DNA of 64,000 bases from Nitrososphaeria archaeon (GCA_963760525.1 CAVXDT010000009.1:15611-79610), one strand, 5' to 3'; shown: positions 7,123 through 52,031, counted from the first letter of the stretch. A program made the numbers and translations. Notes: generated by a model not told the origin, from the letters alone.

Positions 7123-7126
7123 AAAA

Positions 7127-31055: not shown

Positions 31056-31067
31056 TCTTCTTCACTC

Positions 31068-31601: not shown

Positions 31602-31608
31602 TTCCTTC

Positions 31609-33997: not shown

Positions 33998-34533
33998 CGC
34001 ACCTGCTCATTTGATTTCAACTGATCCAGTACTTGTTTTATTTTGTCTATCACAGCCTCTTTTGTCGCCTTTGAAATAGTCTGATCGTCGACTGTAACAT
34101 TGGGAGCCATAGCACAAGCACCTATACATCTTGTGATAAACAGGGATAGCTTTCCATCAGCGCTTGTTTCACCACGTTTTATGTTAAATTCCTGTTCAGC
34201 CGACGTTATTATATCTTCTACCCCTTTTACGTAACAAGCAGTACCTAGGCAAAAAGTTGCTGCATGCTCTCCAGGTTTCTTCAACCTAAACAAGTTGTAG
34301 AACGTTGCCACACCAAGAACGTGGCTCGGAGGAATATGCAGAGATCTAGCGACATGTATCAACAATCGCCTATCAAGATATCCGAAGATTTCTTGGGTGC
34401 TGTGAAGAATCTCAAGAAGAGAGTCCCTTGAATATTGATGTTGTTTCATAATATTGTCCAACAGCAACATACGTTTGTCATCCTGCAAAATTGGTTTTGA
34501 GCTATTTTCAGACAATATAGACCGCGCTCTCAA
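33994..34533 (-). CDS. hoxE: NuoE-like 2Fe-2S subunit
   Basis: GVATFY, CLGTACYVKG, RCIGACAMAP. Confidence 0.9.
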   Translation of the reverse strand: MRARSILSENSSKPILQDDKRMLLLDNIMKQHQYSRDSLLEILHSTQEIFGYLDRRLLIHVARSLHIPPSHVLGVATFYNLFRLKKPGEHAATFCLGTACYVKGVEDIITSAEQEFNIKRGETSADGKLSLFITRCIGACAMAPNVTVDDQTISKATKEAVIDKIKQVLDQLKSNEQVR

Positions 34534-34733: not shown

Positions 34734-35150
34734 TTGGTCAAAGTCGGGAATTTTGAAGTAGTCGAAGATCTGTTTTACTCAAAAGATTGGATGTGGGTAA
34801 AAGTGGAAGATGGCAGAGTCAGAACTGGAATAACCGATTATGCGCAAAAGCAACTGCGCGAGGTAGTGTTTGCTGAGCTTCCTGAAGCAGGTAAAGAAAT
34901 AGTAAAGGGCGAGCCGTTTGGTACAGTAGAATCGGTTAAATCGGTATCAGATCTGGTGGCATCAATTAGTGGTAAGATAGAAGCGGTAAACAAGAAAGTG
35001 AAAGACAACCCGGAAATACTTAACGAAGATCCCTATGGCGAAGGATGGATTCTACTTGTATCTCCAACCAACCTTGAAAAAGATCTTGAAGCCCTAATGA
35101 ACTTCGAAAAAGCTTTAGAATGGCACAAAGAAATGGAAAAAGAAGGTTAA
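34734..35150 (+). CDS. gcvH: Glycine cleavage H / lipoyl carrier protein
   Basis: GITDYAQ, VESVKSVSD lipoyl-Lys motif, NEDPYGEGWI; TTG start at 34734 after GGTGG. Confidence 0.92.
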   Translation: MVKVGNFEVVEDLFYSKDWMWVKVEDGRVRTGITDYAQKQLREVVFAELPEAGKEIVKGEPFGTVESVKSVSDLVASISGKIEAVNKKVKDNPEILNEDPYGEGWILLVSPTNLEKDLEALMNFEKALEWHKEMEKEG

Positions 35151-35154
35151 GTAA

Positions 35155-36500
35155 ATGCCTAAGAAAATAGTTATCGTAGGAGCAAATGCGTCAGGTGTTG
35201 ACGCAGCAGTAGCAGCTCGAAAAATTGACAGGGAAGCAGAAATTATGCTTCTAACAAAAGAGAATGTCGGAGCATACTCCAGATGCGGTCTTCCCTTCGT
35301 ACTAAGTGGGCACATACCTGCTTTCGACAACCTAATTGTTTACTCGCCTACATTCTATCGCATGATGAAATTTGACCTACGTCTGGAGACTGCAGCTACA
35401 AATATTGATACAAAAAACAAAAAAGTCGAAATCGAAGCGAAAGACGGAAAACAGGAAATTCTTCAATATGATAGTCTAATACTAGCCACAGGAGGGGGTC
35501 CTTTTAGTCTTCCTATAGAAGGAATGAATAAGGAAGGCGTCTTCAACCTTCATACTCTGAAAGATGGTGAGAGATTAGCAAATGCTATGAAGACCGCTCA
35601 GTCAGCCATTGTCATAGGATCAGGCCTTGTGGGCCTGGAAGCTGCTGATGCTTTCAGGGAAAAGGGAATAAAGTCCACAATCAGTCGAGATGCTTCCAGT
35701 CGATTCTTCCAAGGCTTCTTGACCGAGATATGTCAGAAGAGCTCCAGAAAGGCCTTGAAGGGAACGGTATCCGAATTATTTTAGGAAAGCCGGCGGGAGC
35801 GATACTTGGAGCAGACAAGGTGCAGGGCTGTATCGGTGGGAGGAGAAGAGGTCCCTGCAGACATAGTCGTCAACGCTGCAGGAGTCAGACCAAACGTCGA
35901 GCTGGCCAAAAAAGCGGGATAGTCATCGGTGAGACAGGGGGCATAAAGACGAATATTCGAAAATGCGGACAAGCGCAGAAGATGTTTATGCTGTTGGAGA
36001 CTGTGCTGAGACAACTCATCATGTTACTCACAGGCCGGCTCTTCCTCTGCTTGGGTCAACGGCTGTCAGAGAGGGTAAGAGTAGCGGGTATAAACGCTGC
36101 AGGAGGATACTCGATATTTCCAGGAACACTTTTCTCAGTGGGTCTCCAAAATGTTCGACTTCGAGGTAGGGGCAACCGGTCTAACAGAATTTTGGGCCTC
36201 TAAATCGGGATAGAAGTTGCTGTTGGCAAAATTAGTGGTCACACAAAGGCACTTTATTACCCCGGAGCCTTTCAATTAAAAGTGAAGCTCATAGTTGAAA
36301 AAGAAACCAAAAAGATTGTCGGCGGAGAAATTGTCGGCGGAGAAGAAGTGACCCAGAGTATCAACGCCCTTTCATTGGCCATCCAGAACAATATGACGGT
36401 CCATGAGCTCATGAAGGCTGACACCTGCTATGCTCCTTCTGTATGCGAGACTTGGGAACCAATGGTTCTGGCGGCAGAGATGGCGATCAGAAGACTGTAG
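35155..36500 (+). CDS. Single-cysteine FAD-dependent pyridine nucleotide-disulfide oxidoreductase (CoADR/Nox/Nsr class), multiple frameshifts
   Basis: YSRCGLP redox Cys, LILATG, GSGLVGLE, VYAVGDC, C-terminal CYAP; pieces spread over ORFs 35155, 35730, 35963, 36282. Confidence 0.85.
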
Positions 36501-36528
36501 CCTGCCACTATTAATGTTAGAAAGAAAG

Positions 36529-36580
36529 GGCTAAAGTAATCACTTTAGCCTGTAATATTGATAGAGAATTAATGCATTAA
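36529..36580. promoter_or_regulatory. Two palindromes upstream of hdrA
   Basis: GGCTAAAGT-aatc-ACTTTAGCC (36529-36550) and TTAATGCATTAA (36569-36580). Confidence 0.5.
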
Positions 36581-36644
36581 AGTTGACTTGCAAACACAAA
36601 GATTATTTACCCTTTGGTATGAGAAAAGGGAGCAAGTCAAAACT

Positions 36645-37962
36645 ATGTCGAATTCGGTTCTAGTAATCGGAGGCGGAATAGCGGGAATTCAAGCCTCTTT
36701 GGACCTTGCTAATCGTGGAATCCAAGTCTACCTAGTTGAAAAACTTCCAAGCATAGGTGGACGCATGGCACAGCTTGACAAAACCTTCCCGACATTGGAC
36801 TGTTCAATTTGTATACTTGCACCAAAAATGATTGAATGTTACAGACACCCAAACATTGCGCTTCTAACCTACTCAGAAGTTAAAGAAGTTAGGGGTAAAG
36901 CAGGCGACTTCAATGTTAAAATCCACAAGAAAACCCGCTACGTAGATGTAGAAAAGTGCACGGGATGTGGCACTTGCATGGAAAAATGCCCTGTGAAGGT
37001 TCCGAATGAGTTTGACATGGGACTTGGAAACAGAAAAGCCATATTCATGCTCTTTAAACAAGCGGTGCCCTTAGTTGCAACAATCGACCCAGAACACTGC
37101 TTATACTTCACTAAGGGCATTTGCAGGGTTTGCCAGAGATTCTGTCCCTCGAAAGCTATCAACTACGAACAAAAACTTGAAGAAAAAATAATAGACGTTT
37201 CATCCATAATCCTAGCAACGGGTTTTGATATCTTCAACCCGTCTTCTATGAGCGAATATGGCTATGGTAGATTCAGGAATGTCATTCATTCAATGGAATT
37301 TGAAAGAATTATATGCGCTTCAGGACCAACGGGAGGCCACCTTATTAGACCCTCAGATGGAAAAGAGCCAAAAAGCGTTGTTTTTGTCCAATGTGTTGGC
37401 TCAAGAAGCCAGCATGGACAATTCCCATTCTGTTCAAGCGTGTGTTGTGTTTACGCTACAAAAGAATCCATTCTAATTAAGGATCACGCTCCAGAAACGG
37501 ATGTGTACATAATGTATATCGACATGAGAGCGGTAGGGAAAGGTTTTCAGGAATTTGTTGACAGAGCCAAAAGAGAATATGGAATCAAGTACGTAAGAGC
37601 TCACCCAGGTGGAATAGCCGAAGACCCCATCACAAAGAGTCTGCAGATTCACTATGAAGACATTCCAACCGGTAAGATGAAGACTTTGGAGGCTGATCTG
37701 GTAGTTCTTTGCCCAGCACTAATACCTAAGGAAGACAACAAAGTCATTAGCTAAGGCGATGGGGCTTGAACTTGACGAATACGGGTTCTTTAAGTCAAAG
37801 GAGCAGCTCATAGCACCAGTTGACACAAACGTCCCTGGAGTATACATATGTGGATACTGTCAATCTCCTAAAGATATTCCCGAAAGCGTCGCTCAAGCAA
37901 GTGGTGCAGCTGCGCGTGCTGCGGAAGTAACGGAATACAAAGTTAAGGAGGTCATGGTATGA
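36645..37962 (+). CDS. hdrA: HdrA-like flavoprotein 1 (FAD domain with inserted ferredoxin; frameshift near 37742)
   Basis: [50 protein letters not shown]; ends [15 protein letters not shown] in ORF 37759..37962. Confidence 0.9.
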
Positions 37963-39656
37963 GCGAGAAGAAGAATCTTCGCATAGGAGTGTTTGTCTGT
38001 CACTGTGGAGTCAACATTGGAGCAGTAGTAAACGTTCCTGAAGTAGTCAAATACGCAGAGACCTTACCTGATGTTATATACGCTGAAGGTAATCTCTACA
38101 CGTGCTCATCTGAAGGATTAAGCAAGATCAAAGATGCAATCAGGAAACACGAGCTCAACCGTGTAGTTGTAGCTTCATGCACTCCAAGGACCCACGAACC
38201 ACTCTTTCGAAGCGCATGTGAAGAAGCAGGAATGAACAAGTACCTATTTCACATGGCTAATATAAGAGAACAGTGCAGCTGGGTCCATGCTAAAGAACCA
38301 CTGAAAGCCACAGAAAAAGCTAAAGAGGTTATTAGGATGGGTGTGGCTAGAGCAGCTTTGCTTGAACCCCAAAACGAGCCCGAAATCGAGGTTCAACCAT
38401 CAGCACTCGTAATAGGCGGTGGGATTGCGGGAATGACCGCATCGCTGAGCCTGGCAAACCAAGGGTTCCAAGTACACTTAATTGAAAAGGAGCCTGAGCT
38501 CGGGGGAAAGCTTCGAGAACTTCATAGGTTATATCCGAGTGAAAAAGACGCTGAGGAAGTTTTGGGGAAATATGTGCAAGCTATAAGATTAAGCCCGAAC
38601 ATAAAGACATATACTTCATCTACTGTAAAGCATAATGGAGGTTTCATAGGTAACTTTAAAGTTACAATAGATCACAAAAGCAAAGAAGAGTCTTTGGATG
38701 TAGGAACTATAATAGTCGCGACAGGTGCAGAAATCCTCAAGCCGCAAGGAATGTATCTCTACGGAGAAAACAAGAATGTCATCACACAACTTGAACTAGA
38801 ACATCTCTTAAAAGAAAGAATGCTTCCTAAGCCAAACTATGTCGTCATAATCCAATGTGCTGGTGCAAGAGAAGAAAAAGAGGGTGGAAGAAATTATTGT
38901 TCGAGAATCTGTTGCGCTGTCGCTCTCAAAAACGCTCTGGAAATCAAGGAAATGTATCCAGAAGCTGAGGTTGCAATACTCTATAGAGACATGCAATCTT
39001 ATGGACGGGAATATGAGGAACAGTATAAAGAAGCACGAGAGAGCTTCGTGCAATTTATAAGATTCGACAAGGAAGACCCACCACAGGTTTCATCGGATCC
39101 AAATGGAAAGATCATTGTAAAAGTTCACGATATCTCAGTCAACACAACTCTCGAACTTCAACCTGACCTCGTTGTTTTATCAACTCCATTAATTCAACCC
39201 GAAGAAATCAAAGAGCTCTCTAGAATGCTTAAAGTTCCACTTGGAGCGGACGGGTTCTTCTTCGAAGCTCATGTCAAGCTTAGGCCGGTTGATTTTGCCA
39301 CTGATGGGATATATGTCTGTGGGACCGCCCATAGCCCAAAGACTATTCCAGAAAGTATCGCTCAAGCTTATGCTGCAGCTTCACGAGCAGGTATCCCGAT
39401 GGCTCTGAGACATGTTAAAACTGAAGCTATAACAGCCTCAGTAAGAGGAGAAGTGTGCACAGGCTGCGGAACCTGTATCAAACTATGTCCCTATAGTGCC
39501 ATACAGAAAGACGAGAAAGGAGTTGCAAAAGTCAATGATGTGCTTTGCAAAGGATGTGGAGTTTGCGCTGCAAGCTGCCCGGAAAGAGCAATAACAATGA
39601 GACACTTTAGTGACACGCAAGTGCTAGCTGAAGCAATGGCGGCTTTGGGGAGGTAA
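37959..39656 (+). CDS. hdrA: HdrA-like flavoprotein 2 (N-terminal Fe-S domain, FAD domain, C-terminal ferredoxin)
   Basis: [43 protein letters not shown], two CxxCxxC; own GGAGGT ribosome site and ATGA overlap. Confidence 0.92.
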   Translation: MSEKKNLRIGVFVCHCGVNIGAVVNVPEVVKYAETLPDVIYAEGNLYTCSSEGLSKIKDAIRKHELNRVVVASCTPRTHEPLFRSACEEAGMNKYLFHMANIREQCSWVHAKEPLKATEKAKEVIRMGVARAALLEPQNEPEIEVQPSALVIGGGIAGMTASLSLANQGFQVHLIEKEPELGGKLRELHRLYPSEKDAEEVLGKYVQAIRLSPNIKTYTSSTVKHNGGFIGNFKVTIDHKSKEESLDVGTIIVATGAEILKPQGMYLYGENKNVITQLELEHLLKERMLPKPNYVVIIQCAGAREEKEGGRNYCSRICCAVALKNALEIKEMYPEAEVAILYRDMQSYGREYEEQYKEARESFVQFIRFDKEDPPQVSSDPNGKIIVKVHDISVNTTLELQPDLVVLSTPLIQPEEIKELSRMLKVPLGADGFFFEAHVKLRPVDFATDGIYVCGTAHSPKTIPESIAQAYAAASRAGIPMALRHVKTEAITASVRGEVCTGCGTCIKLCPYSAIQKDEKGVAKVNDVLCKGCGVCAASCPERAITMRHFSDTQVLAEAMAALGR

Positions 39657-40432
39657 TGGTAATGAGCGAGTTTGAACCCAAGATTGTTGGTTTCCTATGC
39701 AATTGGTGCAGCTATGCAGGCGCAGACCTTGCCGGGGTGAGCAGAATACAGTACCCACCCAACATAAGGATTGTTCGCGTCATGTGCAGCGGAAGAATCG
39801 ACCCGACAATCCCACTTGAAGTTCTGATGGGAGGGGCTGATGGAGTGCTTGTGTTAGGATGCCACCCTGGAGACTGCCATTACGTTGAAGGAAACCTATA
39901 TGAAGAGAAAAAGATCGTATTGGCGAAGAAACTCTTAGCGCTAACAGGTCTTGAACCTGAACGTCTCAAACTTGAATGGGTTTCAGCATCTGAAGGACAG
40001 CGATTCGCTAAGTTGGTGACAGAATTCACGGAGCAAGTAAGGAAGTTAGGCCCTTCGCCAGTGTCAGGAATGAACCAGGATATTTTTTTGAATATTCAAG
40101 CAGCAAGAAATGCAGCTGCAAAATTTAGATTAAGGGTTATCGTAGGAAGAGAAAGGGAATTAACTGAGAAGACTAATGTTTACAAAGAAAAGATCTCTCA
40201 AGATGAATATGATTCTTTGTTAGATGAGATAGTTGAAACCGAATATATTCGCCAAAAAATTCATCTTATTACACGGAAAAAACCTTTGTCTATCACAGAT
40301 ATAGCATCAACTGTTCATATGAAACCTGCTGAAGTACTTGGAGAAATCGTGGAAATGCGCAGAAAAAACATGATAGCGGTGGACTCAATAAAAGATCAAA
40401 CACCACTCTATAAGGCGTTGGAGGTCGAGTGA
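39656..40432 (+). CDS. mvhD: MvhD 2Fe-2S subunit with C-terminal extension
   Basis: [35 protein letters not shown], plus about 120 extra residues. Confidence 0.92.
   Translation: MVMSEFEPKIVGFLCNWCSYAGADLAGVSRIQYPPNIRIVRVMCSGRIDPTIPLEVLMGGADGVLVLGCHPGDCHYVEGNLYEEKKIVLAKKLLALTGLEPERLKLEWVSASEGQRFAKLVTEFTEQVRKLGPSPVSGMNQDIFLNIQAARNAAAKFRLRVIVGRERELTEKTNVYKEKISQDEYDSLLDEIVETEYIRQKIHLITRKKPLSITDIASTVHMKPAEVLGEIVEMRRKNMIAVDSIKDQTPLYKALEVE
39668..39798 (+). repeat. 131-bp dispersed direct repeat, copy 1 (mvhD 5' end)
   Basis: Matches 43474..43604 with one mismatch seen (39778 C vs 43584 A). Confidence 0.9.
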
Positions 40433-40436
40433 ACAA

Positions 40437-43400
40437 ATGGAAGATAAGAAGGTGGGCGCAGTTCTCGTATTAGGAGGGGGAGTAGCTGGAATACAGGCAA
40501 GCCTCGACCTAGCAGACTCAAGCTTCAGAGTTTACTTGGTTGATCAAGGTTCCAGTATAGGTGGAGTGATGGCTCAGCTTGACAAGACATTCCCAACAAA
40601 CGACTGTTCAATGTGTATCCTTTCACCGAAACTGGTTGCAACAGGAAGACACCCCAACATAACCATCTTAACAAATGCTGAAATAACAGGTCTAAAAGGT
40701 GAAGCAGGAAACTTTGAAGTTGAACTTCGAAAGAAGAGCAGGTACATAATTGAAGAAAAATGTAATGGCTGCGGACTATGTGCACAGAAATGCCCAATTG
40801 AAGCTGTGGACACATTCAACGAGGGTCTGGGAAAGAGAAACGCAATATACATTGAATATCCTCAAGCTGTCCCATTGAAATATACTATTGATCGCGAAAA
40901 ATGCATAGGATGTGGAACATGCTCAGAAATATGTAAAGCACAAGCGGTCTTTTACGAACAAGAAGAAACCGAAACCACACTTAAAGTGGGTTCGATAATC
41001 CTTGCCCCAGGATTTGAGCCCTTTGATGCGAAAATGAAAAGTGAATACGGATATGGTCGATACCAAAACGTTGTGACAAGCATAGAATTTGAGCGAATAC
41101 TAAGCGCTTCAGGACCCTATGGTGGTCTTGTGCTTCGACCTTCAGATGGTGAAATCCCTAAGAAGATTGCTTTCATTCAATGTGTTGGTTCACGGGACTA
41201 CCAATTAGGTAACAACTATTGTTCTGCAGCATGTTGCATGTACGGAATGAAGGAGGCGGTCATAGCAAAGGAGCATACTCCAACGAAGCTCAATGCGTCC
41301 ATTTTTTATATGGACATGCGATCATTTGGAAAGGAATTTGATGCTTACAGGAATCGCGCAGAAGAAGAATACGGAATAGGATTTGTGAGGTCAAGGGTCG
41401 CTAGTTTGACAGAGGACCCGAAAACAAACAGTGTCATAGTAAATTATATCGTGGATAATAGTCCAAGAACAGAAGATTTTGATATGGTTGTATTGGTTAC
41501 TGGAATGCGGCCACCGAAGGATGCTGAAAGACTTGCTGAGAGTTTGGGAATAAAGCTCAACAAATACAACTTCTGTCAAACTGAGACTTTTTCACCGATG
41601 GAAACCTCGAAAAGAGGTATTTTTGTCTGTGGCGCATTTAGTAGTCCGAAAGATATTCCAGAAAGTGTCGCACAGGCAAGTGGAGCAGCATCTATGGCAA
41701 TGAGCGTAATTGCTAGCGAAAGGGGAACCCTAATCACCAAGAAGGAGTACCCGCCGGAGAGAGACGTAAGCTTAGAAGAACCTCGCATAGGTGTTTTTGT
41801 ATGCCATTGCGGCATTAACATCGGTGGGGTAGTGAATGTTCCTGAAGTGGTTGAATACTCGAAAGAACTACCCAACGTAGTCTATGCAGAGGCCAACATG
41901 TACACGTGCTCACAGGACACTCAGAAACTAATTGCGGAAAAGATTAAAATAAACAGACTCAATCGTGTTATAGTAGCTTCGTGTACACCAAGAACTCATG
42001 AACCACTGTTCAAAGAGACAGTTCAGGAGGCGGGGTTGAACCCATATCTCTTTGAGATGACTAACATACGTGATCAGTGCAGTTGGGTGCATATGCACGA
42101 GCCCGAGGAGGCAACGCAGAAGGCTAAAGAGCTTGTAAGGTCTATCGTAGCTAAAGCAAAGCTTTTGAAACCTTTACAGAAACCAAGAGTAAGCGTTGTA
42201 CCCGTTGGGCTGGTCATAGGTGGTGGCGTCTCAGGAATGACCGCTGCATTGAAACTGGCGGAGCAGGGATTCGAAATTCATCTTGTCGAGAAAGAGAAGG
42301 AATTAGGTGGTTACTTGCGCAATATCCATTATCTGCTCGAAGATGATATTGACCCACAAAAGGAACTTTTACGATTGGTTAGGGCTGTTACCGAAAACGA
42401 GAAGATACATGTCTATACTGGAGCAGAAGTCGTTGACGTCTATGGATTTGTCGGCAACTTCAAGTCCAAAGTGAAGTTGGAAGAGGGGATAGAAAAGGAA
42501 ATCAAGCACGGCACAGTTATCGTTGCCACAGGTGCAATTGAATACAAACCGACAGAGTATTTGTACGGTGAAGATCCTAGAATTGTCACACAACATCAAC
42601 TCGAAGAAATGATTGCTGAAGGCAAATTCAAGGCGAAAAACGTGCTTATGATCCAGTGCGTCGGAGCCAGAAACGACGAGAATCCGAACTGCTCAAGAAT
42701 ATGCTGTGGTCAAGCTGTAAAGAATTCCTTACGAATCAAGGATATTAGTCCTGAAACTGAAGTTTACGTTTTATATAAAGACATGAGAGCTTATGGTTTT
42801 AGAGAGGATTATTACCGCGACGCTGCCATGAAGGGCGTATTATTTGTGAACTATGATGATAAGAAGAACCGAAAGTTGGAAAAGATGACTTGGGAGGACT
42901 TGCGGTTACATTCTGGGAGCCCACGTTAGGTGAAGAGATAAGGATTAATCCGGATATGATAGCTCTAAGCGCTGCTACAATACCTAATCCGAACAATAAG
43001 CGGTTGGCTGAAATGCTTAAAGTGCCATTGACAAAAGATGGCTTCTTCTTGGAAGCTCATATGAAACTTAGACCTGTAGATTTCGCAACGGAAGGAGTGT
43101 TTTTGTGTGGCATGGCACATTCACCTAAGTATATAGATGAAAGTATTGCTCAAGCTTGTGCAGCAGCAGCAAGAGCTGCAACCATACTTTCGAAAGAAAC
43201 TCTTGAGATGGAGGGAATTATCGCCAGTGTCGAAGAAGACTTATGCGGCGGATGCAAGATTTGTGAGAACCTATGCCCATACAGAGCAATCGAAATGAAA
43301 GATAAGGAAGGTAAAACTGTTGCGCATGTGGTTGAAGCCCTATGTAAGGGGTGTGGTGTTTGTGGTGCAGCATGCCCGACTAAAGCCATTACTATGGGGC

Positions 43401-43462
43401 ACTTTACGACCGAAGAGATATTGGCTCAAGTCAAAGCCATATTACTGGAGGTTAAGGCATGA
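40437..43462 (+). CDS. hdrA: Double-length HdrA-like flavoprotein 3 (two FAD modules; frameshifted near 42870-42890)
   Basis: GGGVAG and GGGVSG FAD motifs, [12 protein letters not shown], internal [15 protein letters not shown] and C-terminal ferredoxin in ORF 42890..43462. Confidence 0.9.
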
Positions 43463-43899
43463 TGGAAAAAAATGAGTTTGAACCCAAGATTGTTGGTTTC
43501 CTATGCAATTGGTGCAGCTATGCAGGCGCAGACCTTGCCGGGGTGAGCAGAATACAGTACCCACCCAACATAAGGATTGTTCGAGTCATGTGCAGCGGAA
43601 GAATAGAACCGTCATTCGTCTTGGAAGCCTTCAAGGATGGTGCGGATGGAGTGCTTGTTGCTGGTTGCCATTTGCCATCTGACTGTCATTACATTAGTGG
43701 AAACTTTAAGGCTTTTAGACGTGTCACGCTGCTGAAGGAGGTTCTCAAAGAATTCGGAATTGAGCCAGAAAGGCTGAGACTAGAATGGATTTCAGCAAGT
43801 GAAGGAGATAAGTTTGCTGCTGTGGTTCGTGACATGGTGGAAAAGATGAAAAAGCTTGGGCCAAATACAATCATGGTTAAAAAGGTTGATGTACAATGA
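43459..43899 (+). CDS. mvhD: MvhD 2Fe-2S subunit, copy 2
   Basis: [36 protein letters not shown]. Confidence 0.93.
43474..43604 (+). repeat. 131-bp dispersed direct repeat, copy 2
   Basis: Matches 39668..39798. Confidence 0.9.
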
Positions 43900-44414
43900 G
43901 TGAGATAGAAAAGGAAGTAGTAAAAGCGTCTGAGATCGATCCCAAGTTCAAGTATGAAATCTCAAAGATACACGGTGGCGAAAAACTGATGCGCTGTTTC
44001 CAATGTGGAACATGCACTTCGGACTGTCCAGTTGCAAGATTTAGTGACACCTATAGGCCAGGACAGATAATCCGCATGGCGCAACTCGGATTGAAGGACA
44101 AAGTGTTGAAGAGCGATACGCTGTGGTTGTGTGCGTCATGCTTCACATGCACCGACCGCTGCCCACAAGACGTTGAGGTCGCAAGTGTTATACGCGTACT
44201 TAGAAATCTGGCGGTAGAACAAGGTGCTGTACCTCAAGTGTTCAAGGAACAATATGCAAGTGTACTGGCGTCAGGATACGCTTATAAGATTCCCGAATTG
44301 CGCTTGAAAAAACGCGAGTCTCTAGGATTGCCACCATTGCCAACAGGGAAACCTGAAAGTATCCGCAAATCACTGAGCAGTGTGAAATTCCTCAAACATG
44401 TAGAGGGGAAATAG
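43896..44414 (+). CDS. hdrC: Heterodisulfide reductase subunit C
   Basis: [12 protein letters not shown] and [14 protein letters not shown]. Confidence 0.93.
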
Positions 44415-44418
44415 AAAT

Positions 44419-45309
44419 ATGGCAGAAAACAGATATCTAATATTCCTCGGATGTGCAATCCCATATCGTGTTCCAGCATTTGAAATTTCAGCTAGGAAGA
44501 CACTTGCAAGGTTGGGTGTGGAATTAGTTGAGATGCCTGAGTTCAACTGTTGCGGTTTGCCATTAGACCCTGTTAGTCATGATACAATGCTTATATTGGC
44601 TGCGAGAAACTTGGCGTTAGCTGAGCAAAAAGGTCTAGACATCATTACCTTATGCCCCGGTTGTGCCGGGACATTGAAGAAGGTCAGCAAGATGTTGAAA
44701 CAAGACAAAGCACTATGCGATGAAATAAATGGCCATTTGGGAGAGGTAGGGCTTGAGTTCAAGGGAACAGTTAACGTGAAGCATCTTATGCAAGTATTGA
44801 TTGAAGACATAGGAATAGAGAAGGTGAAGAATTCAGTCGTTAACCCACTTACAACGCTGAAAGTCGCTGAACACAATGGATGCCACATCTCGCGCCCTAA
44901 GGAATATATTGGTTTTGATGACGCAGAAAATCCAATGACACTCAAAAAACTGATTGAAGCAACAGGAGCAACATGCTTGGACTACATGGATGAAACAGAA
45001 TGTTGTGGCGCCCCAAGTGTAGGCGTTAATGACACTATCGTATTAAAACTTGCAAGGGACAAGCTGAATAATATTAAAGTTGTAGGCGCTCAAGCTCTAT
45101 AACTATCTGCCCATTTTGTCACATTATGTATGACACGAATGAAGTGCGCATAGAGAAAATGTTCAGTGAAGTTTATGGTATTCCAGTGCTTCATTATCCA
45201 CAACTACTTGGTCTGGCAATGGGTTTGAAACCTGAAGAGCTTGCTTTCGGCGATTTGAGGGTTACACACGTCCAAAATACTGAATAGTCTCCCTCAAGCT
45301 GATAAATGA
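44419..45309 (+). CDS. hdrB: Heterodisulfide reductase subunit B (frameshift near 45098, probably another near 45265)
   Basis: FLGC, NCCG, LCPGC, HNGCH, ECCG; shifted frame continues ITICPFCHIMYD...IPVLHYPQLLGLAMG; end at 45287 or 45309 (ATGA overlap with mvhG). Confidence 0.9.
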
Positions 45310-46290
45310 TGTCGAAAGAAAAACTGAAGGTAGCCTTCTATTGGGCTGCCAGCTGTGGCGGATGCGAAATTGCAGTGCTTGACATAAATGAGAAAATACT
45401 TGACATAGTGCAAATTGCTGACATCGTCTTCTGGCCAGTAGCAATGGACATAAAGTACAAAGATGTTGAGTCGATGCCAGATAATTACATTGACATATGC
45501 TTCTTCAACGGTTCTGTGAGAACTGAGGAGCAAGAGCATATGGCTAAGCTCATGAGGAGTAAGTCTAAGACACTCGTCACTTTTGGCTCCTGCGCTCAAG
45601 AAGGATGTGTGCCAGGACTAGCGAATCTGTATGAACGCAAAGAGATACTAAATAAAACTACTTGGAGAGCAGATATGTCTCAAATCCTGATGGCGTCATC
45701 CCATTGAACAAGACGGTAATTAGAGAAGGAGAGCTCAGGCTTCCTAAGTTCTATGACACTGTGAGGACTCTGGACCAAACTGTTGACGTGGATTACTACT
45801 TGCCCGGCTGCCCACCTCCAGTAAAGCTAATACTGGGTGCTCTTGACGCCATAGCGAAAGGCAAATTGCCACCTAAGGGTTCGGTGCTTGCCCTCTGAAG
45901 TCAGTATGCGATGAATGCCCAAGGAAGAAGGAGAACAAGAGGATTTCAAGGATTTACCGTGTTCATGAGAAAGTTCCTGAACCCGAGAAGTGCCTACTTG
46001 AGCAGGGGATAATCTGCATGGGACCTGGAACCCGCAGTGGCTGCGGGGCTCAATGCTTGACTGCTGACATGCCATGCACCGGATGCGGTGGACCATGCCC
46101 AAATTCAGTGGAGCAAGGTGCTGCCATGATTAGTGCAATAGCATCTATACTTGGATTAGACGATGAAAATGAGCACTTCACCAAGGAAGATGTTGAGAAT
46201 CTAATGAGCCAAATCAAAGATCCTATCGGTACATTTTACATGTATTCTTTGCCAGCATCAATATTGAGAAGGAAAGTGATAACCAAATGA
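45306..46290 (+). CDS. mvhG: Group 3c hydrogenase small subunit (frameshifted into three ORFs)
   Basis: ASCGGCE, FGSCA..GCVPGL, LPGCPP, CMGPGTRSGCGAQC..MPCTGCGG. Confidence 0.9.
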
Positions 46291-47783
46291 AAGAAATAAT
46301 CATTGACCCAATAACAAGGCTTGAAGGGCATGGTAACATTTCAATATTCTTAAATGACGCCGGAGAGGTAGAAAATGCCTACTTGAAGGTTCCCGAGCTT
46401 AGAGGATTCGAACAGTTCTGTATTGGAAGAAGAGCTGAGCTCATGCCCGTTCTGACTTCCAGGATTTGTGGAGTCTGCCCAGTCGCCCACCACACTGCAG
46501 CAACCAAAGCCCTAGATTCGGCATTTAAAGTTGAACCTCCTTCAGCAGCCAAGAAGCTCAGAGAACTTATGTACTCCGGTTATCTTATTTATGATCATAT
46601 CTTACATTTCTACTATTTGGGCGGTCCAGACTTCATAGTTGGCCCTGAAGCGCCACCGGGCAAGAGAAACATCTTAGGGGTGATCGAGAAGGTTGGTATT
46701 GATGTAGCAAGGCAGGTCATTAAGCACAGAGCATACGGACAAAAGATTACTGAGATTCTGGGCGGAAAGGCAACACATCCTGTCTGCGGTTTGCCTGGTG
46801 GATTCTCAAAGCCTTTGAGTGAGGAAAATCGGGTCCAAATTGAGGAGATGGCTACTTCCTGCCATGATTTCGCTAAGTTTACGCTTAAAATATTTCATGA
46901 TATTGTACTGGGAAATAGCAAATATGTGGACATGATTAAGAGCGATGCTTATACGATGAGGACCTACTACATGGGTTTAGTCGACAGTAATAACAAAGTC
47001 AATTTCTATGATGGAAGAGTTAGAGTTGTTGACCCCAAAGGGAATGAGTTCTTGAAGTTTGAGCCAAAGGATTACCTGAACAATATTGGCGAAAGTGTTG
47101 AGAAATGGACCTATGCGAAATTTCCATATCTCAAGAAGGTCGGTTGGAATGGATTGACTTGTGGAGAAGCAAGCGGGATTTACCGTGTAGGACCTTTAGG
47201 TCGACTTAATGCATCGGATGGTATGGCTACACCATTTGCCCAAGCTGAATATGATGAGATGTACAAAACTCTCGGTAGGCCTATACATGGGACGTTGGCC
47301 TATCATTGGGCAAGATTGATTGAGCTTCTATATGCTACTGAGAGAGCGCTTGAGCTAATTAGGGATCCAGAGATTACGAGTAAAAACGTTAGGAACAAAC
47401 CTGGTGAGCCAGGTGAAGGCGTAGGAGTAGTCGAAGCAGCGAGAGGAACTCTGTTTCATCATTACGTTCTTGACAGCGACGCGTTGATCAAGGATGTAAA
47501 TATGATAGTAGCCACAACAAATAATTATCCAGCAATTTGCATGTCTATTAGAGATGCTGCCAAAGGTTTAATTCATGGAGCTAATGTAGATCAAGGAATT
47601 TTGAATAAAGTGGAGATGGCTTTTAGAGCTTACGACCCGTGCTTTGGATGCGCTACACACTTCGCAATCGGGCAAATGCCTTTGACTTTGAAGATATACA
47701 ACCATAGAAAGGAACTTGTTAGACATTGCAAAGATAGAAGTTCCTATTTTCCCTTAAAAACAATACTGTCCTGTGAAGGCTAA
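46287..47783 (+). CDS. mvhA: Group 3c [NiFe]-hydrogenase large subunit
   Basis: PITRLEGHG, ELRGFE, L1 RICGVCP, L2 DPCFGCATH; true stop may be TAG at 47735-47737 after an indel. Confidence 0.93.
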   Translation: MKEIIIDPITRLEGHGNISIFLNDAGEVENAYLKVPELRGFEQFCIGRRAELMPVLTSRICGVCPVAHHTAATKALDSAFKVEPPSAAKKLRELMYSGYLIYDHILHFYYLGGPDFIVGPEAPPGKRNILGVIEKVGIDVARQVIKHRAYGQKITEILGGKATHPVCGLPGGFSKPLSEENRVQIEEMATSCHDFAKFTLKIFHDIVLGNSKYVDMIKSDAYTMRTYYMGLVDSNNKVNFYDGRVRVVDPKGNEFLKFEPKDYLNNIGESVEKWTYAKFPYLKKVGWNGLTCGEASGIYRVGPLGRLNASDGMATPFAQAEYDEMYKTLGRPIHGTLAYHWARLIELLYATERALELIRDPEITSKNVRNKPGEPGEGVGVVEAARGTLFHHYVLDSDALIKDVNMIVATTNNYPAICMSIRDAAKGLIHGANVDQGILNKVEMAFRAYDPCFGCATHFAIGQMPLTLKIYNHRKELVRHCKDRSSYFPLKTILSCEG

Positions 47784-47864
47784 TATTTTCCAAGCGAAAA
47801 CCTAAATCGAGACAACTCTCTTGAAAAGAAAGGTTAAATATTATTCTGTCGTTGATAGGGTTGA

Positions 47865-48212
47865 ATGGAAATGCAAGTTGCATTTGTTCTTATAAATGCA
47901 GATTTGGGAGCTGAAGAAGAAATAGCGAAAGAACTGAAAAAGATACCTGAAGTCAAAGAAGTGTACGTGGTCTATGGTACCTATGACGTGATTGCTAAGA
48001 TTCAAGCAGAGACCATGGACAAGCTGAAAGATACGATTACTTGGAAGATACGACATCTGCAGAATGTACGCTCGACTCTGACGATGGTCGTAATGGAAAG
48101 CTCCAGAAAAAGCAGGTCTCAAACAGAAATAGCTACTTTCGCATATGCGTTGGAATGTGTTATTAGAGTTTTCTTTATAATCTTACGTAAGGATACTAAA
48201 CGAGAGTCTTGA
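47865..48212 (+). CDS. Stand-alone Lrp/AsnC ligand-binding (RAM) domain protein
   Basis: AFVLIN, VYGTYDVIAKI, NVRSTLTM; no HTH; last ~35 aa probably artefactual. Confidence 0.85.
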   Translation: MEMQVAFVLINADLGAEEEIAKELKKIPEVKEVYVVYGTYDVIAKIQAETMDKLKDTITWKIRHLQNVRSTLTMVVMESSRKSRSQTEIATFAYALECVIRVFFIILRKDTKRES

Positions 48213-48280
48213 TTGTGCGATTCTCATGACCGGAACCTAAGCATTCTAGCCTGATTTATTTTCACCCAGATAGGAATTTC

Positions 48281-48312
48281 CTCTACTCTTTCAAGACGTT
48301 GGGAGAGTAGAG
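48281..48312 (+). other. 14-bp RNA-type stem-loop between convergent genes
   Basis: CTCTACTCTTTCAA-gacg-TTGGGAGAGTAGAG, two G.U pairs on the plus strand. Confidence 0.6.
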
Positions 48313-48332
48313 AATGCCATGTGCAGATATCC

Positions 48333-49189
48333 TCAGTCTAAGAACCTGTCAAAGAATTCTTGAGGCAATGAACAACATGCCTTGACAATGTTCAGACGGA
48401 GCTTCTGAGCTATTTTCGCCCTTGGCACAGCTATCCTATCAAGAAAACAATCATTAATTAATCCTTCATCAAAAAGGCTTTTGTATTTCGGAGGTCTCAT
48501 ACAACCAAGTGCAATCTCTCCTTGAACCTTTGCGAGTATGAGAATATCTCAGTTTAAATCACCTATTCTCGGAGACTTGAAGTTAGCCATGGGAGTATTA
48601 GCTGTTGGCATAAAGATCAGAAAGGTCATTAGATAAGCCCGATGGTCTATTACAATATCTATAGCTTCTCGCTCCTTTCAATTTCACCATATCTTGAACC
48701 TATAAGAACATGTGGAGCTATATATGAGGGACCATGTCCAAGCAAAAGTTCGAAGCTTTTTACATAGTCTGAAGGCTCTTTTTTTAAGCCTTGGACTTCT
48801 TTAATTACTACCGGATCAATCATCATTCCGTAATCAACCACGTCTACCTTATTGTTTCTCATCTGTGTTGCCAAATCTTTGTCCACTAGACCAGAGTGCA
48901 CACTGACAACTAGGTCAAAGTCTTTTTTTATTTCCTTTACAATCTGTAAGAAAGGCATTATAGGTAATACGCCTTCAAGGTTAAATCCCCCACTCAAGAG
49001 AATGCCCCTCGCACCTTTCGAGGTTAGAAATCGAGCCACATCATACAACTGCTTAGGCGTAGAAGCGCCTATCATGCCTTCAAGATAGTTTCCCATGCAG
49101 AACTTGCACTTAAGTTGGCAGCTTGCAGCGGTAATACTTACTGCAGGATACTTTACTCTTGGAAAGAAAGCAATGGTTCTCATCTTCAC
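48333..49189 (-). CDS. lipS1: Archaeal-type lipoyl synthase subunit 1 (radical SAM; frameshifts near 48675 and 48555)
   Basis: SITAASCQLKCKFC, LLSGG, APHV; uncalled downstream frames give FMPTANTPM, IALGCMRP and KACCSLP...FLD* (TGA 48333-48335). Confidence 0.82.
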
Positions 49190-50145
49190 CCACTGAAGTT
49201 TTGTTTAAGCTGCCTTTGGACTAGCTGATGTTCAACCTCAAACATAGACATTGATGGGTAATTGTATATTTTGGATGGTCTTTCGTTGTAGAAAGGACGG
49301 TTACATCCGGGGCAACCAGAAGTAAGAAACGCATACTTCAAGTCCTCTGATTTCTCGTTTAGGTCAATCTTGAGATCATTTCCCTCAAGTATTTCGTTAA
49401 GCTTTAAACCCTTACTAAGCAGGAACCTAATCACTTGAATTCGCCTGTATTGTATTATTTCTGGCTGAGAAAGATGCGCCATTGGCGTTCCCTGCGATGG
49501 TGTGAATGAAAAGAGGGCGACCTCTGCACCTTTTTCGTAAACTTTCTCCATCGTCTTTGCGAACTCGGTTTCAGTCTGACCTATTCCGAATATTAAGTGG
49601 ACACAGACATGTCCATTTCCAAAGAGCGCGACGCTTCTTTCAATAAACGCCCAAAAATCATCCCATTTAAATGGCTTCTTAATTATGTCAAATGCTTCAC
49701 GAGAAGCTACATCTAACCCGACACCAATACGATCAATTCCAAGATACTTCAACGCCTTCAGGGTGGAATAGTCTACGGGTGTAGTTCCTACAGAGATAGG
49801 TGTCTTAATACCTGCATCTACTATTTCCTTCACGATTTTTGTTAGTTCATTTTGAAAATCGTTTTTGACAACATTCTGAACACATATCCTGGTAAATGCA
49901 GTGCTCTTTTTAAGGTCAACAATAAGTCGCTCCAATTCAACTCTTGGCCAACGAACTCTTGAGATAAAGTCCTTGTTGCTTTGATTAGATGAACTTTGTG
50001 AGCAGAAAAGACATCGCGCCTGACAGCCTTTATAGTTATATTGCAGAAGATATGCAGTTGTAGGATGTTCCAGCATGTTCATCTTTTCCCTACCCAATGA
50101 AGCCAATGTGCCAATTGAAGCTCTGACCAGCATGTTACCAACCAT
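49186..50145 (-). CDS. lipS2: Archaeal-type lipoyl synthase subunit 2 (radical SAM)
   Basis: PTTAYL, CQARCLFCSQ, SRVRWP, HLIFGIG, C-terminal TSGCPGCNRP. Confidence 0.85.
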   Translation of the reverse strand: MVGNMLVRASIGTLASLGREKMNMLEHPTTAYLLQYNYKGCQARCLFCSQSSSNQSNKDFISRVRWPRVELERLIVDLKKSTAFTRICVQNVVKNDFQNELTKIVKEIVDAGIKTPISVGTTPVDYSTLKALKYLGIDRIGVGLDVASREAFDIIKKPFKWDDFWAFIERSVALFGNGHVCVHLIFGIGQTETEFAKTMEKVYEKGAEVALFSFTPSQGTPMAHLSQPEIIQYRRIQVIRFLLSKGLKLNEILEGNDLKIDLNEKSEDLKYAFLTSGCPGCNRPFYNERPSKIYNYPSMSMFEVEHQLVQRQLKQNFSG

Positions 50146-50350
50146 CTTATCTAATGCCCTATTTCTCTTCTTTTTTACAGTTACTTAATTGGATAAAAAT
50201 ATTGCTATTCTGAAACCTGTCCAAAAAAAGCCATACTATGACTTCTAAGAATGGGATCTTCTTTCTAATCTTTTTTTCTTAAATGGAGATTAGATAGCAT
50301 ATATAGGTGAGTTAAAGTTAATCAATCCTGCCTTCTTTCTAGGGCGGATT

Positions 50351-50650
50351 GTGGGAAGTTTGAGCCTTCAGGATAATAATAATGATAACACAGTCAGAAC
50401 ATCAATCCCAGTATTGGGAATGGATTGCTACGAATGTTCCAAGATCATTGTAAAAACTGTCAAGAAAATAAGTGGGGTTCAAGATGTTAAAGTAAACTAC
50501 ATGATTGGAACAGTGGAGGTAAACTTTCAGCCCGGTAAGACTTCAAAAGTTATGATTGAGAAAGCTATAGAAGATGCAGGCTACAAAATTGCCTATAAGA
50601 GTTACGTAACTATGACAGATAAGATGAAGAGCTTTTTTCTGAAGAAGTGA
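50351..50650 (+). CDS. Heavy-metal-associated (CopZ-like) metal chaperone
   Basis: GMDCYEC motif, IEDAGY. Confidence 0.88.
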   Translation: MGSLSLQDNNNDNTVRTSIPVLGMDCYECSKIIVKTVKKISGVQDVKVNYMIGTVEVNFQPGKTSKVMIEKAIEDAGYKIAYKSYVTMTDKMKSFFLKK

Positions 50651-50876
50651 GGATTTTGCTTGAAAGTTTTAGATATGTTGGAGACTTATTAGGAGGCTTG
50701 ACTTAGCTCATGTTGATTCTGTAGATTCGCTGTTAATATGTTAGTAAGGCATACCTTCCAATATAGATCCTGATTTTTGGCCTCCTTTGGTATGTGAAGA
50801 CCTTTAAACAAATGAAACAGAAATATTCTCATTTGGTGAAGAAAGTTTAAATCTGATAAGCTAGGAACTTGCACAT

Positions 50877-52031
50877 ATGAATTCCCAGCCTAAGAGAACT
50901 CACCTTTTCAATTTTCATAAAAAGTATGGGCAGATTACCGAATTCGCTGGATTCGAACATGCCTTGTGGTATGAAGGTATCGCTCAAGAACATCTAGCTG
51001 TAAGAAACACTGTTGGAGTATTTGATGTTACACATATGGGAAGGACAATAATTGAAGGAGAAGATGCTATCAACCTTATGGAAAAATGCTTTCCTAGAAA
51101 GGTTTCTAATATGAGCGTGAACCAAGGTAGATATGGATTTCTCTTAAACGAGAAGGGCGGGATTATGGATGATCTCACTGTCTTCAGGCTCAAGGAGAAG
51201 GAGTTCCTGTTGGTCTGTAATGCTTCAAATAGGCAAAAGGACTTCTCATGGATAAAGAAAGCATCTGAAAACCTAAATGCCAGCGTGACGGATGTATCAG
51301 ATCAGTCAGTAATGCTAGCTGTTCAAGGGCCTAAAGCAATGGATACGCTGCAACAGATGTCGGACAAAGAACTTGCTTCTATAAAGAGATATTGGGGTGA
51401 CTGGATCAAGCTTGATGAATTTCATGTGCTAGCCACAAGAACAGGTTATACGGGGGAAGATGGCTTCGAAATCTATCTCTGGAATACGCCACTCACTATG
51501 ACTGAGACAGCAGAGAAACTCTTATGGAGCATCCTTAGAGCAGGTGAGAAATACAGTATAAGACCCTGTGGCTTAGGTGCAAGAGATACCTTAAGACTTG
51601 AGGCAGGAATGTGCCTTTACGGAAACGACATCGATGAGAATACTTCACCTTTGGAAGCAGGTTTTACACCATTGATAGATTTTGACAAAACAGATTTCAT
51701 AGGAAGAACAGCTCTAATAGAACAAAAAGAAAAAGGGATAGACAGACTTAGAGTTGGAGTTCGTATGACAAAGACTGGCATCCCGAGACACGGATATGAA
51801 CTCTATTCTGACAACAAGAGGATAGGAGACCTAACTAGCGGGACATTCTCACCGCTTTTGAAGGTTGGAATAAGTCTCGGATATGCTCTAACTGAATACT
51901 CCAAAATAGGGACAGAGATCCAAGTCAAGATAAGAGACAAGTTAGTAGACGCTTTTGTCGCAGAAACACCATTCTATGACACAAAGGAATACGGGTATAA
52001 AAGAGCTGTTCAAAACACTACAGCTATATAG
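50877..52031 (+). CDS. gcvT: Glycine cleavage T protein (aminomethyltransferase)
   Basis: EHLAVR, FDVTHMG, GGIMDD, QGP, RTGYTGEDGFE, GLGARDTLRLEAG. Confidence 0.95.
   Translation: MNSQPKRTHLFNFHKKYGQITEFAGFEHALWYEGIAQEHLAVRNTVGVFDVTHMGRTIIEGEDAINLMEKCFPRKVSNMSVNQGRYGFLLNEKGGIMDDLTVFRLKEKEFLLVCNASNRQKDFSWIKKASENLNASVTDVSDQSVMLAVQGPKAMDTLQQMSDKELASIKRYWGDWIKLDEFHVLATRTGYTGEDGFEIYLWNTPLTMTETAEKLLWSILRAGEKYSIRPCGLGARDTLRLEAGMCLYGNDIDENTSPLEAGFTPLIDFDKTDFIGRTALIEQKEKGIDRLRVGVRMTKTGIPRHGYELYSDNKRIGDLTSGTFSPLLKVGISLGYALTEYSKIGTEIQVKIRDKLVDAFVAETPFYDTKEYGYKRAVQNTTAI

Follow-up and report, generated by a model that had tools for sequence, protein, structure and literature searches.

A GcvH paralogue paired with a coenzyme A disulfide reductase-type flavoprotein beside an MvhAGD-HdrABC gene cluster: a candidate lipoyl disulfide partner of HdrB in Bathyarchaeia-like archaea

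The window analysed here is a 64,000-nucleotide stretch of DNA from an uncultured Nitrososphaeria archaeon of sediment (GCA_963760525.1, CAVXDT010000009.1:15611-79610), and its positions 34734 to 52031 hold a gene cluster in which a gene of the glycine cleavage H protein family (gcvH) and a gene for a flavoprotein are followed by the genes of a complex of the MvhAGD-HdrABC type, combining a [NiFe]-hydrogenase with a heterodisulfide reductase (Hdr). The gene identities are taken from Pfam and NCBIfam profile scans, which bear out the gene order described in an earlier sequence-only reading of this DNA, with all the named genes found in their places. From gcvH to mvhA all the genes lie on the + strand. 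The gcvH gene (34734-35150; PF01597, 2.6e-38) has a TTG start at 34734, which agrees with the start of its orthologues, and encodes a putative lipoyl carrier of 138 aa. It is followed by the gene of its partner flavoprotein (35155-36500; Pyr_redox_2), which is broken by 8-9 indels, and then by a 144-bp spacer (36501-36644), in which the palindromes noticed earlier are indeed present as two 9-bp inverted repeats. Beyond this spacer lie hdrA1 (36645-37962, with one frameshift near 37749), a short variant lacking the N-terminal and C-terminal ferredoxin domains, of which the 438-aa orthologue in the related genome G029 has its top scores with the HdrA2/HdrA models; hdrA2 (37959-39656, 565 aa; Pfam and NCBIfam); a long mvhD with a C-terminal extension (39656-40432, 258 aa; PF02662, 1.4e-52); hdrA3 (40437-43462, with one frameshift near 42861), a double-module HdrA of about 1000 aa that is a single frame in G029; a second mvhD (43459-43899, 146 aa; PF02662, 2.4e-56); hdrC (43896-44414), having 8 cysteines in two CxxCxxCxxxC motifs; hdrB (44419 to about 45300; PF02754), having two CCG domains, with its C-terminal part shifted by indels near 45098 and 45265; mvhG (45306-46290, with two frameshifts), the [NiFe]-hydrogenase small subunit, of which the G029 orthologue (328 aa) scores best with VhuG; and mvhA (46287-47783), the large subunit with its RICGVC and DPCFGC motifs.

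Three-frame translation and alignment with two related genomes reveal about 15 one- or two-base indels that are private to the window's assembly: 8-9 in the flavoprotein gene, one each in hdrA1 and hdrA3, two each in hdrB and mvhG, and at least one in lipS1. When compared with contigs of related strains from four other metagenomes, these indels are absent at the six covered sites (35682, 35694/35696, 35960, 36138, 36204 and 37746). The indel-dense part at 35600-36500 is closer to G029 (0.87-0.91) than its surroundings (0.75-0.78), the shifted frames retain 69-88% protein identity, and a further contig (C14) likewise carries at least one gene divided between frames, which makes an error-prone assembly the likelier explanation. 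Pseudogene decay has been rejected as the cause on the same three grounds, and read-through at selenocysteine or pyrrolysine codons has been rejected because the breaks are frame changes. Judged from these alignments, the indels are probably assembly errors, though a recent, real inactivation in this strain is possible. The segment 35600-36500 may be locally mis-assembled or strain-mixed. No sequencing run contains more than 13% of the sequence words of 35100-38100, and no RNA run is found among the matches listed. Where the window's genes are broken, whole proteins have been read from the intact orthologues of G029 (locus L004).

The genome to which the window belongs (G000) comprises 1.22 Mb in 15 contigs and is 68.5% complete. 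Its order contains only the 10 genomes of its family, and the order-level search gave no wider view. The genomes G029 and G005 of a sister genus are titled 'Nitrososphaeria archaeon' metagenome-assembled genomes, close loci outside this genus are titled 'Candidatus Bathyarchaeia/Bathyarchaeota', and the listed HdrB homologues (at least 120) are 81-100% identical, those that are named being Bathyarchaeia or Nitrososphaeria proteins. Family and genus codes (f- and g-numbers) are arbitrary, and in all counts given below related genomes are non-independent observations.

The window's HdrB is the sole CCG-domain protein of the assembled genome. In its intact G029 orthologue both CX(n)CCX(n)CXXC motifs are complete, such that HdrB looks functional as far as its sequence tells. 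The complex resembles the MvhAGD-HdrABC complex of hydrogenotrophic methanogens, reportedly described by Wagner et al. in 2017, in having MvhA, MvhG, MvhD, HdrA, HdrB and HdrC, with the hallmark motifs present: two complete CCG motifs in HdrB (read from G029), two four-cysteine motifs in HdrC, the MvhD family and the [NiFe] motifs in MvhA. It differs from the methanogen complex in its three HdrA and two MvhD, in NCBIfam scores below the equivalog cut-offs (HdrB 282 versus 345, HdrA 574 versus 1100, VhuA 432 versus 800 and VhuG 219 versus 450), and in the lack of Mcr: searches for mcrA (MCR_alpha) gave no match in the window's genome (68.5% complete) or in five relatives (76-97% complete). The absence of mcr that had been noted for the window thus extends to six genomes, and the heterodisulfide of coenzymes M and B (CoM-S-S-CoB) is consequently unlikely as the substrate. 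The absence of dsrC likewise reaches beyond the window, DsrC being not found in G000, G029, G005 and G035; one match is present in G057.

When considering the carrier protein, the window's genome holds three GcvH genes, two of which are paralogues on other contigs, as well as gcvPA and gcvPB on contig C5 and a further gcvP-like gene on contig C11; two glycine-cleavage-like sets may be present. The earlier statement that gcvP is missing is correct for the window but not for the genome. On contig C11, a second gcvT-like match and the gcvP-like gene lie at about 8852-14072, and the third GcvH paralogue lies 36 kb off, at 50021-50464. The GcvH encoded in the window scores above the cut-offs of the GcvH models (TIGR00527, 126 versus 115.85; NF002270, 143.9 versus 117), its canonical relatives having scores of 149-164. 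Its lipoyl-lysine is found in a VESVKSV motif and is invariant in 45 orthologues, cysteines are absent from the protein and from its G029 and G005 orthologues, and its calculated isoelectric point (pI) of 4.68-4.83 lies at the boundary to the GcvH-like LbpA proteins, which are described as having a basic surface and a pI above about 4.5, GcvH being acidic. GcvH is present in 55 of the 201 genomes of a class-level sample, and 40 of the class-level places listed were compared together with the two orthologous loci. Most of these genes form gcvT-gcvH pairs, or full gcv operons in the ammonia-oxidiser family, and the GcvH genes of the window's own family adjoin an asnC-like gene. In the genera g3 and g4 of this family (six genomes), only the canonical GcvH and no CCG protein is found. 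In a tree of 47 GcvH sequences, all eight that are linked to Hdr or CCG genes, and one other, are separated from the 38 others by a branch with 96/89 support, and the window's GcvH clusters with its G029 and G005 orthologues (100/96). By these sequence comparisons, the window's gcvH is classed as a specialised extra paralogue and not as the housekeeping H protein. Two tandem GcvH-like genes with arginine in place of the lipoyl-lysine occur in G035 (L008:6901-7317 and L008:7323-7694), where a third GcvH gene, which retains the lysine, three CCG-domain genes and an OsmC gene lie around them.

The flavoprotein, as seen in its intact G029 orthologue of 446 aa, consists of a Pyr_redox_2 domain and a dimerisation domain, without a rhodanese domain in the Pfam and NCBIfam scans. 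It has cysteines only at positions 44, 282, 423 and 429, and the single redox cysteine, Cys44, in the motif YSRCGLPF, is invariant in four orthologues. The models of coenzyme A disulfide reductase (CoADR) score best, below cut-off (TIGR03385, 346.2 versus 578.8), the score with the dihydrolipoamide dehydrogenase (Lpd) model TIGR01350 is 148.5 against a cut-off of 408.8, and the CxxxxC redox disulfide is absent. The nearest matches in the Protein Data Bank are NADH oxidases and CoADR, and the relatives found there include NADH peroxidase and a CoA-persulfide reductase (8a56). Profile scores and active-site motif together place the flavoprotein in the CoADR/NADH-oxidase/peroxidase class and not with classical Lpd. 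Near the C-terminus of the orthologue (L004:17166-18503), the cysteines 423 and 429 lie in the motif DTCYAPSVCETWEP and are invariant in the four aligned orthologues. C-terminal cysteine pairs of this kind are known in mercuric reductase and in the large thioredoxin reductases, and by analogy Cys423 and Cys429 could form a second redox centre that communicates with a protein substrate.

The association of the two genes recurs in genomes of the phylum. The flavoprotein is found in 76 of the 401 genomes of a phylum-level sample (E <= 1e-90), and in the best 60 of these 76 loci, which were fetched, gcvH lies within 500 bp of the flavoprotein gene in 49 and within 6 kb in 50. A metagenome scan, in which 80 of 126 flavoprotein relatives were kept, shows gcvH adjacent in 53 of the 80 loci, and several of the other 27 lack upstream sequence. 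A scan of genome contigs gave 12 flavoprotein loci, 5 of them at 72% identity or above; gcvH is directly upstream in 4/4 of these 5 that have upstream sequence. The gcvH and flavoprotein genes form a conserved unit, here referred to as the pair. Genes of glyceraldehyde-3-phosphate dehydrogenase (GAPDH) and phosphoglycerate kinase (PGK), whose identity is confirmed by Pfam in the members scanned, directly follow the pair in L143, L149, L152, L153, L155, L156 and others, and at L051:4110-6151.

The tie between the pair and Hdr/Mvh genes also extends beyond the window. The order from gcvH to mvhA is preserved as a whole in G029 and G005, with 75-91% protein identity, and this recurrence in two genomes of the sister genus puts the arrangement beyond chance. 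In G029, hdrA2 and the long mvhD are read as one frame of 810 aa (L004:13241-15673, - strand), either a real fusion or an assembly error; in the window, in G005, in L182 and in L186 they are separate, overlapping genes. Synteny of gcvH with hdr-mvh genes, which had been proposed as a check, is found in these two genomes and also in other families and in several gene orders: in all, neighbouring Hdr/Mvh genes accompany the pair in five or more families and in six or more gene orders, in many cases no further than 700 bp away. Of the 50 pair loci in species genomes, 11 have Hdr/Mvh flanks (f40 3/4, f43 1/4, f46 5/6 and f67 2/2), the distances from the pair being 10 bp, 54-153 bp and 572-694 bp. 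In L049, where the flavoprotein is 82% identical, the pair stands beside a different set, mvhG-mvhA-hdrA::mvhD-hdrC-hdrB, and its HdrB is only 43% identical to that of G029 (41-43% for L049, L122 and L066). The order lipS2/lipS1-gcvH-flavoprotein-mvhG-mvhA-hdrA-hdrC-hdrB-GAPDH-PGK is observed in L144 and L146, where the GAPDH and PGK genes also close the mvh-hdr operon. In L182 and L186, three hdrA and two mvhD genes lie on one side of the pair and hdrC-hdrB on the other. In L188 the pair is followed after 10 bp by a 683-aa HdrD-like protein, and in L185 an HdrD-like protein of 379 aa comes after gcvH, while not far away an HdrB-like gene adjoins that of a group-4-type hydrogenase subunit. The order in L162 and L164 is flavoprotein-mvhG-mvhA without hdr; in these loci (from G353 and G341), mvhG and mvhA come 54-134 bp after the flavoprotein gene, no hdrA, hdrB, hdrC or mvhD is present in the flanks, and the hydrogenase may be coupled to the pair without Hdr.

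Neighbours of the HdrA/MvhD type are seen in 10 of 58 pair loci from metagenomes and close relatives. In the 16 metagenome pairs having at least 5 kb on both sides, Hdr/Mvh genes occur within 6 kb in four and only at about 9 kb in one. When the Hdr-adjacent label is mapped on the flavoprotein tree, at least four changes are needed. In two other families of the class, GcvH-like genes abut CCG genes without a flavoprotein: in L035 an HdrD-like gene is followed by GcvH, in L039 GcvH is followed by an HdrB-like and then an HdrC-like gene, and in L008 three GcvH-like genes are found among three CCG genes and an OsmC gene. With tblastn alone, divergent CCG genes such as those of L039 were missed, and the search was redone with iterated profiles; the iterated HdrA profile drifted to 173 matches and was replaced by a strict score filter, giving 31 open reading frames. 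Complex prediction for HdrB (30-row alignment) with GcvH (45-row alignment) gave scores of 0.00 and 0.00, in runs without controls, and this counts neither for nor against binding.

Taken together with the class assignments of the two proteins, this arrangement suggests, tentatively and at somewhat less than an even balance, that lipoyl-GcvH is the disulfide partner of HdrB and is recycled to NAD(P) by the flavoprotein. GcvH and the CoADR/NADH-oxidase-type flavoprotein would form a two-gene redox couple, in which lipoamide and dihydrolipoamide exchange with NAD(P)(H), and this couple would be built into the operon region of an MvhAGD-HdrA(x3)BC complex. At the two non-cubane clusters of HdrB, the lipoyl disulfide of GcvH would be used instead of CoM-S-S-CoB, the electrons of H2 would be divided by Mvh and HdrA between ferredoxin and lipoyl-GcvH, and dihydrolipoyl-GcvH would be reoxidised by the flavoprotein with NAD(P)+. 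In CoADR catalysis the active-site cysteine forms a mixed disulfide with CoA, and Cys44 of the flavoprotein would form a mixed disulfide in the same manner. In net terms H2, ferredoxin and NAD(P) would be coupled reversibly and near equilibrium. We infer, in this proposal, the action of the flavoprotein on the lipoyl group, the action of HdrB on the same group, and the direction of electron flow. The cofactor would be made by the nearby lipoyl synthase halves LipS1 and LipS2, encoded on the - strand. The lipS2 gene (49186-50145) scores 305.6 bits with NF053743, above the cut-off of 270. The lipS1 gene (about 48250-49189) has at least one frameshift and an in-frame stop; its N-terminal part matches NF053742 (4.8e-47), with 160.8 bits versus a cut-off of 230 for a piece that covers 164 of the 268 model positions. 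The proposal in the sequence-only reading that protein-bound lipoamide replaces CoM-S-S-CoB can be followed with regard to the Hdr link and the NAD(P) branch, which are plausible and have comparative data behind them, but not with regard to its glycine-cleavage branch. Archaeal GAPDH and PGK act in gluconeogenesis, and one may speculate that the GAPDH-PGK neighbours of the pair fit a role in supplying NADPH.

The E0' of lipoamide is -0.29 V, which allows direct transfer to NAD+, according to the part of PMC6067878 considered here. With such a potential, as estimated with the potentials of H2 and ferredoxin, there is almost no driving force for bifurcation from H2, and this is one of several points that speak against HdrB using lipoyl-GcvH. 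Being close to equilibrium with lipoamide, the system could run in either direction. NAD-dependent bifurcating hydrogenases likewise run either way. Next door, divergent from gcvH, lies a five-gene operon of a HoxEFUYH-type NAD-linked [NiFe]-hydrogenase (29625-34533, - strand), so that there is no obvious need for another route from H2 to NAD(P). Most pairs stand apart from Hdr/Mvh genes: such flanks are missing in 39 of the 50 species-genome loci, including all those of f25 (0/24) and f30 (0/7), which are the most-sampled families, and of f34 (0/2), and also in 11 of the 16 metagenome pairs flanked on either side by 5 kb or more. The commonest neighbours of the pair are GAPDH and PGK, in 23 of the 60 species-genome loci and, respectively, in 15 and 12 of the 58 loci from metagenomes and close relatives. 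In L049 the pair and mvh-hdr are transcribed in divergent directions, in the window the hairpin-bearing 144-bp gap separates it from hdrA1, and the window's genes are interrupted by indels. Since CCG proteins are present in as many as 274 of the 401 phylum-sample genomes, their co-occurrence with the pair carries no weight. Moreover, the families f6 and f7 of the class have CCG proteins in 7/8 and 14/17 genomes and GcvH in 0/8 and 0/17, and lipoyl-GcvH therefore cannot be a universal Hdr substrate.

Three other explanations of the pair have been weighed. According to one of them, gcvH and the flavoprotein are simply the H and L proteins of ordinary glycine cleavage, with gcvT 3 kb downstream and gcvP elsewhere, and hdr/mvh are unrelated. 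A lipoyl-lysine H protein that passes the GcvH equivalog cut-offs, beside a pyridine-nucleotide disulfide oxidoreductase, is what such a system would look like, and gcvT, gcvPA and gcvPB are all present in the window's own genome. The gene at 50877-52031 (+ strand; PF01571, 1.3e-82) encodes an ordinary glycine-cleavage T protein. The reported lack of a classical Lpd also holds for the assembled 68.5% of the genome; it probably reflects incompleteness, however, since a protein of 480-496 aa with a strong Pyr_redox_dim match, a separate Lpd-like protein, is present in all five relatives searched. The genome has, in addition, two further GcvH paralogues of the type used by relatives, and the flavoprotein has one active-site cysteine instead of CxxxxC. 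The distribution of the T protein is also at odds with this explanation. Whereas 151 of the 401 phylum-sample genomes have GcvT, a cross-tabulation by hand shows it in just 14 of the 50 pair genomes, and 35 of the 36 pair genomes without it are at least 90% complete. Of five near-complete pair genomes, four have no GcvH besides that of the pair, four lack GcvT as well as GcvP, and three have a separate Lpd-like protein of 482-515 aa. The H/L-protein explanation fails for the orthologous group because the pair is mostly found in genomes without GcvT/GcvP. Furthermore, gcvT and lipS are near the cluster only in the window's genome and are unlinked to it in G029 and G005. The earlier suggestion of a link to glycine cleavage or synthesis is not supported in view of these two findings, gcvT is probably a neighbour and not part of the gcvH-Hdr module, and ordinary glycine cleavage as the job of the pair is very improbable.

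A more serious possibility, though still an unlikely one, is that the pair works on its own, as a dithiol relay driven by NAD(P)H that serves thiol homeostasis or the defence against peroxides, and that HdrB uses another disulfide. Such a relay might feed lipoyl-dependent peroxidases of the OsmC/Ohr type, Ohr/OsmC enzymes being lipoyl-dependent peroxidases, or might keep cysteine enzymes such as GAPDH reduced; its nearness to Hdr/Mvh would result only from redox-gene clustering or common regulation. This is in agreement with the 39 of 50 loci in which the pair has no Hdr neighbours, with GAPDH/PGK as the commonest neighbours, with the OsmC gene clustered with GcvH-like and CCG genes in G035, and with NADH oxidases, CoADR and NADH peroxidase as the nearest solved relatives of the flavoprotein. 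It is less easily reconciled with the Hdr/Mvh/CCG genes found within 700 bp of the pair in nine loci of four families, with differing HdrB types, which is far above a rough chance estimate (not a test) of about 1% for a CCG locus within 1 kb of a given gene, at about 8 such loci per 1.6-Mb genome; in G057, moreover, GcvH-like genes abut HdrD/HdrB-like genes without any flavoprotein. The remaining explanation, that the lipoyl protein carries sulfur, as has been proposed for LbpA, that the CoADR-type enzyme is a persulfide or polysulfide reductase and that the cluster reduces sulfane sulfur with H2, is improbable, if marginally less so than ordinary glycine cleavage. It would draw on the CoA-persulfide reductase (8a56) among the structural relatives of the flavoprotein, on LipS1/LipS2 as the synthases typical of LbpA systems, and on two points made in the part of PMC6067878 considered, namely that LbpA is genetically essential in sHdr systems and that a dihydrolipoamide dehydrogenase gene is linked to hdr in archaeal sulfur oxidisers. 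The window's GcvH, on the other hand, lacks both cysteines typical of LbpA and has a pI of 4.7-4.8, the single hdrC and single hdrB of the window belong to a set of the MvhAGD-HdrABC type and not to hdrC1B1A-hyp-hdrC2B2, which accompanies LbpA together with the sulfur transferases DsrE/TusA, and the flavoprotein has no rhodanese domain.

Among known systems, sHdr-LbpA of Hyphomicrobium denitrificans, Thioalkalivibrio and Sulfolobales, in which LbpA has been tied to sHdr genetically (PMC6067878, in the part considered), is similar to the window when considering the association of a GcvH-like lipoyl protein with Hdr-type CCG proteins, with LipS1/LipS2, which are established archaeal lipoyl synthases, nearby (PMC6067878 and PMC10332631, in the parts considered), and when considering, in archaea, the link of a flavoprotein disulfide reductase to hdr. 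The Hdr of the window, unlike sHdr, belongs to the hydrogenase-linked MvhAGD-HdrABC type and is encoded by three hdrA, two mvhD, one hdrC and one hdrB; the carrier scores above the cut-off of the GcvH model and, unlike LbpA, has neither of the two conserved cysteines; the flavoprotein, with its single redox cysteine, falls into the CoADR/NADH-oxidase type and is not a classical Lpd; and the organism is an anaerobe without sign of sulfur oxidation. The likeness to LbpA that had been suggested lies in LipS1/S2 and the Hdr context; since the two LbpA cysteines are lacking, the comparison, made with the published features of LbpA, is a loose one.

A closer precedent is found in Culexarchaeia, for which Kohtz et al. 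2022 (PMC9723716) state, in the part considered here, that the Hdr disulfide is not known and that the GcvH in an Ehe/HdrBC/HdrA2B2C2 cluster could coordinate the disulfide for HdrB. The idea of GcvH as an Hdr partner is therefore already in print for Culexarchaeia, this being the only paper found that suggests it. As in the window, the archaeon belongs to the TACK group, is not a methanogen and has no Mcr, and GcvH is encoded in the midst of genes for HdrB and bifurcating Hdr; the Culexarchaeia hydrogenase, unlike the window's soluble Mvh type, is a membrane-bound enzyme of group 4 that is accompanied by SdhA and CdhA, and the window's GcvH is tied to a CoADR-type flavoprotein, a partner that is not mentioned for Culexarchaeia in the same part of PMC9723716. 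In L066 and L185, as in the Culexarchaeia cluster, an HdrB-like gene adjoins that of a group-4-like large hydrogenase subunit, and both are close to the pair. The literature searched gave no description of the GcvH/CoADR-type pair or its Mvh-Hdr link in Bathyarchaeia-like archaea, nor of genomes that have the pair without GcvT/P; the supplementary tables of PMC10332631 may already list these genomes.

Some further features of the window can be described here. The Hox operon encodes NuoE-like, NuoF-like and NuoG-N-terminal-like subunits together with the small and large [NiFe]-hydrogenase subunits, and is a second, NAD-linked hydrogenase beside the Mvh/Hdr cluster; none was seen at the corresponding place in G029. 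Between mvhA and the lipS genes lies the gene of a small Lrp/AsnC protein (47865-48212, + strand, 115 aa), having only the ligand-binding (RAM) domain, with a homologue located divergently upstream of gcvH in G029 (L004:19039-19329) and in G005. RAM-domain homologues adjoin both canonical and Hdr-linked gcvH genes in relatives, and this protein is a possible small-molecule sensor for these loci. An HMA gene, together with gcvT, closes the stretch. At 5743-9302 (- strand), the window encodes MttB (481 aa), a corrinoid protein (230 aa) and an MtmB-like protein (459 aa, full profile) without in-frame TAG; a match to the Rfam family PYLIS_3 (mttB pyrrolysine insertion) at 8249-8348 lies inside the mttB frame. 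In this non-methanogen, the proteins probably belong to the methyltransferase families as members without pyrrolysine.

In organisms without coenzyme M or B, the substrate of Hdr is a gap in the quantitative description of the energy metabolism of anaerobic archaea and bacteria, including H2 use, the supply of ferredoxin for the Wood-Ljungdahl pathway and fermentative H2 release. The locus and its relatives provide a concrete, clonable candidate, a 138-aa lipoyl protein and one flavoenzyme, which is testable with three or four recombinant proteins, and genomes exist in which glycine cleavage cannot be the job of this carrier. In a wider and more doubtful form of the proposal, a GcvH-derived lipoyl protein and a single-cysteine, CoADR-type 'lipoyl-protein dehydrogenase' might be the physiological couple of HdrB/HdrD in Bathyarchaeia-like and other non-methanogenic archaea; Mvh-Hdr might then perform a reversible H2:ferredoxin/NAD(P) bifurcation, feeding for example NADPH-dependent gluconeogenesis, and genomes that lack glycine cleavage might retain a whole pathway of lipoate synthesis solely for this carrier. 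Should the Hdr interpretation prove wrong, the pair remains a widespread lipoyl redox module of Bathyarchaeia that has so far gone undescribed.

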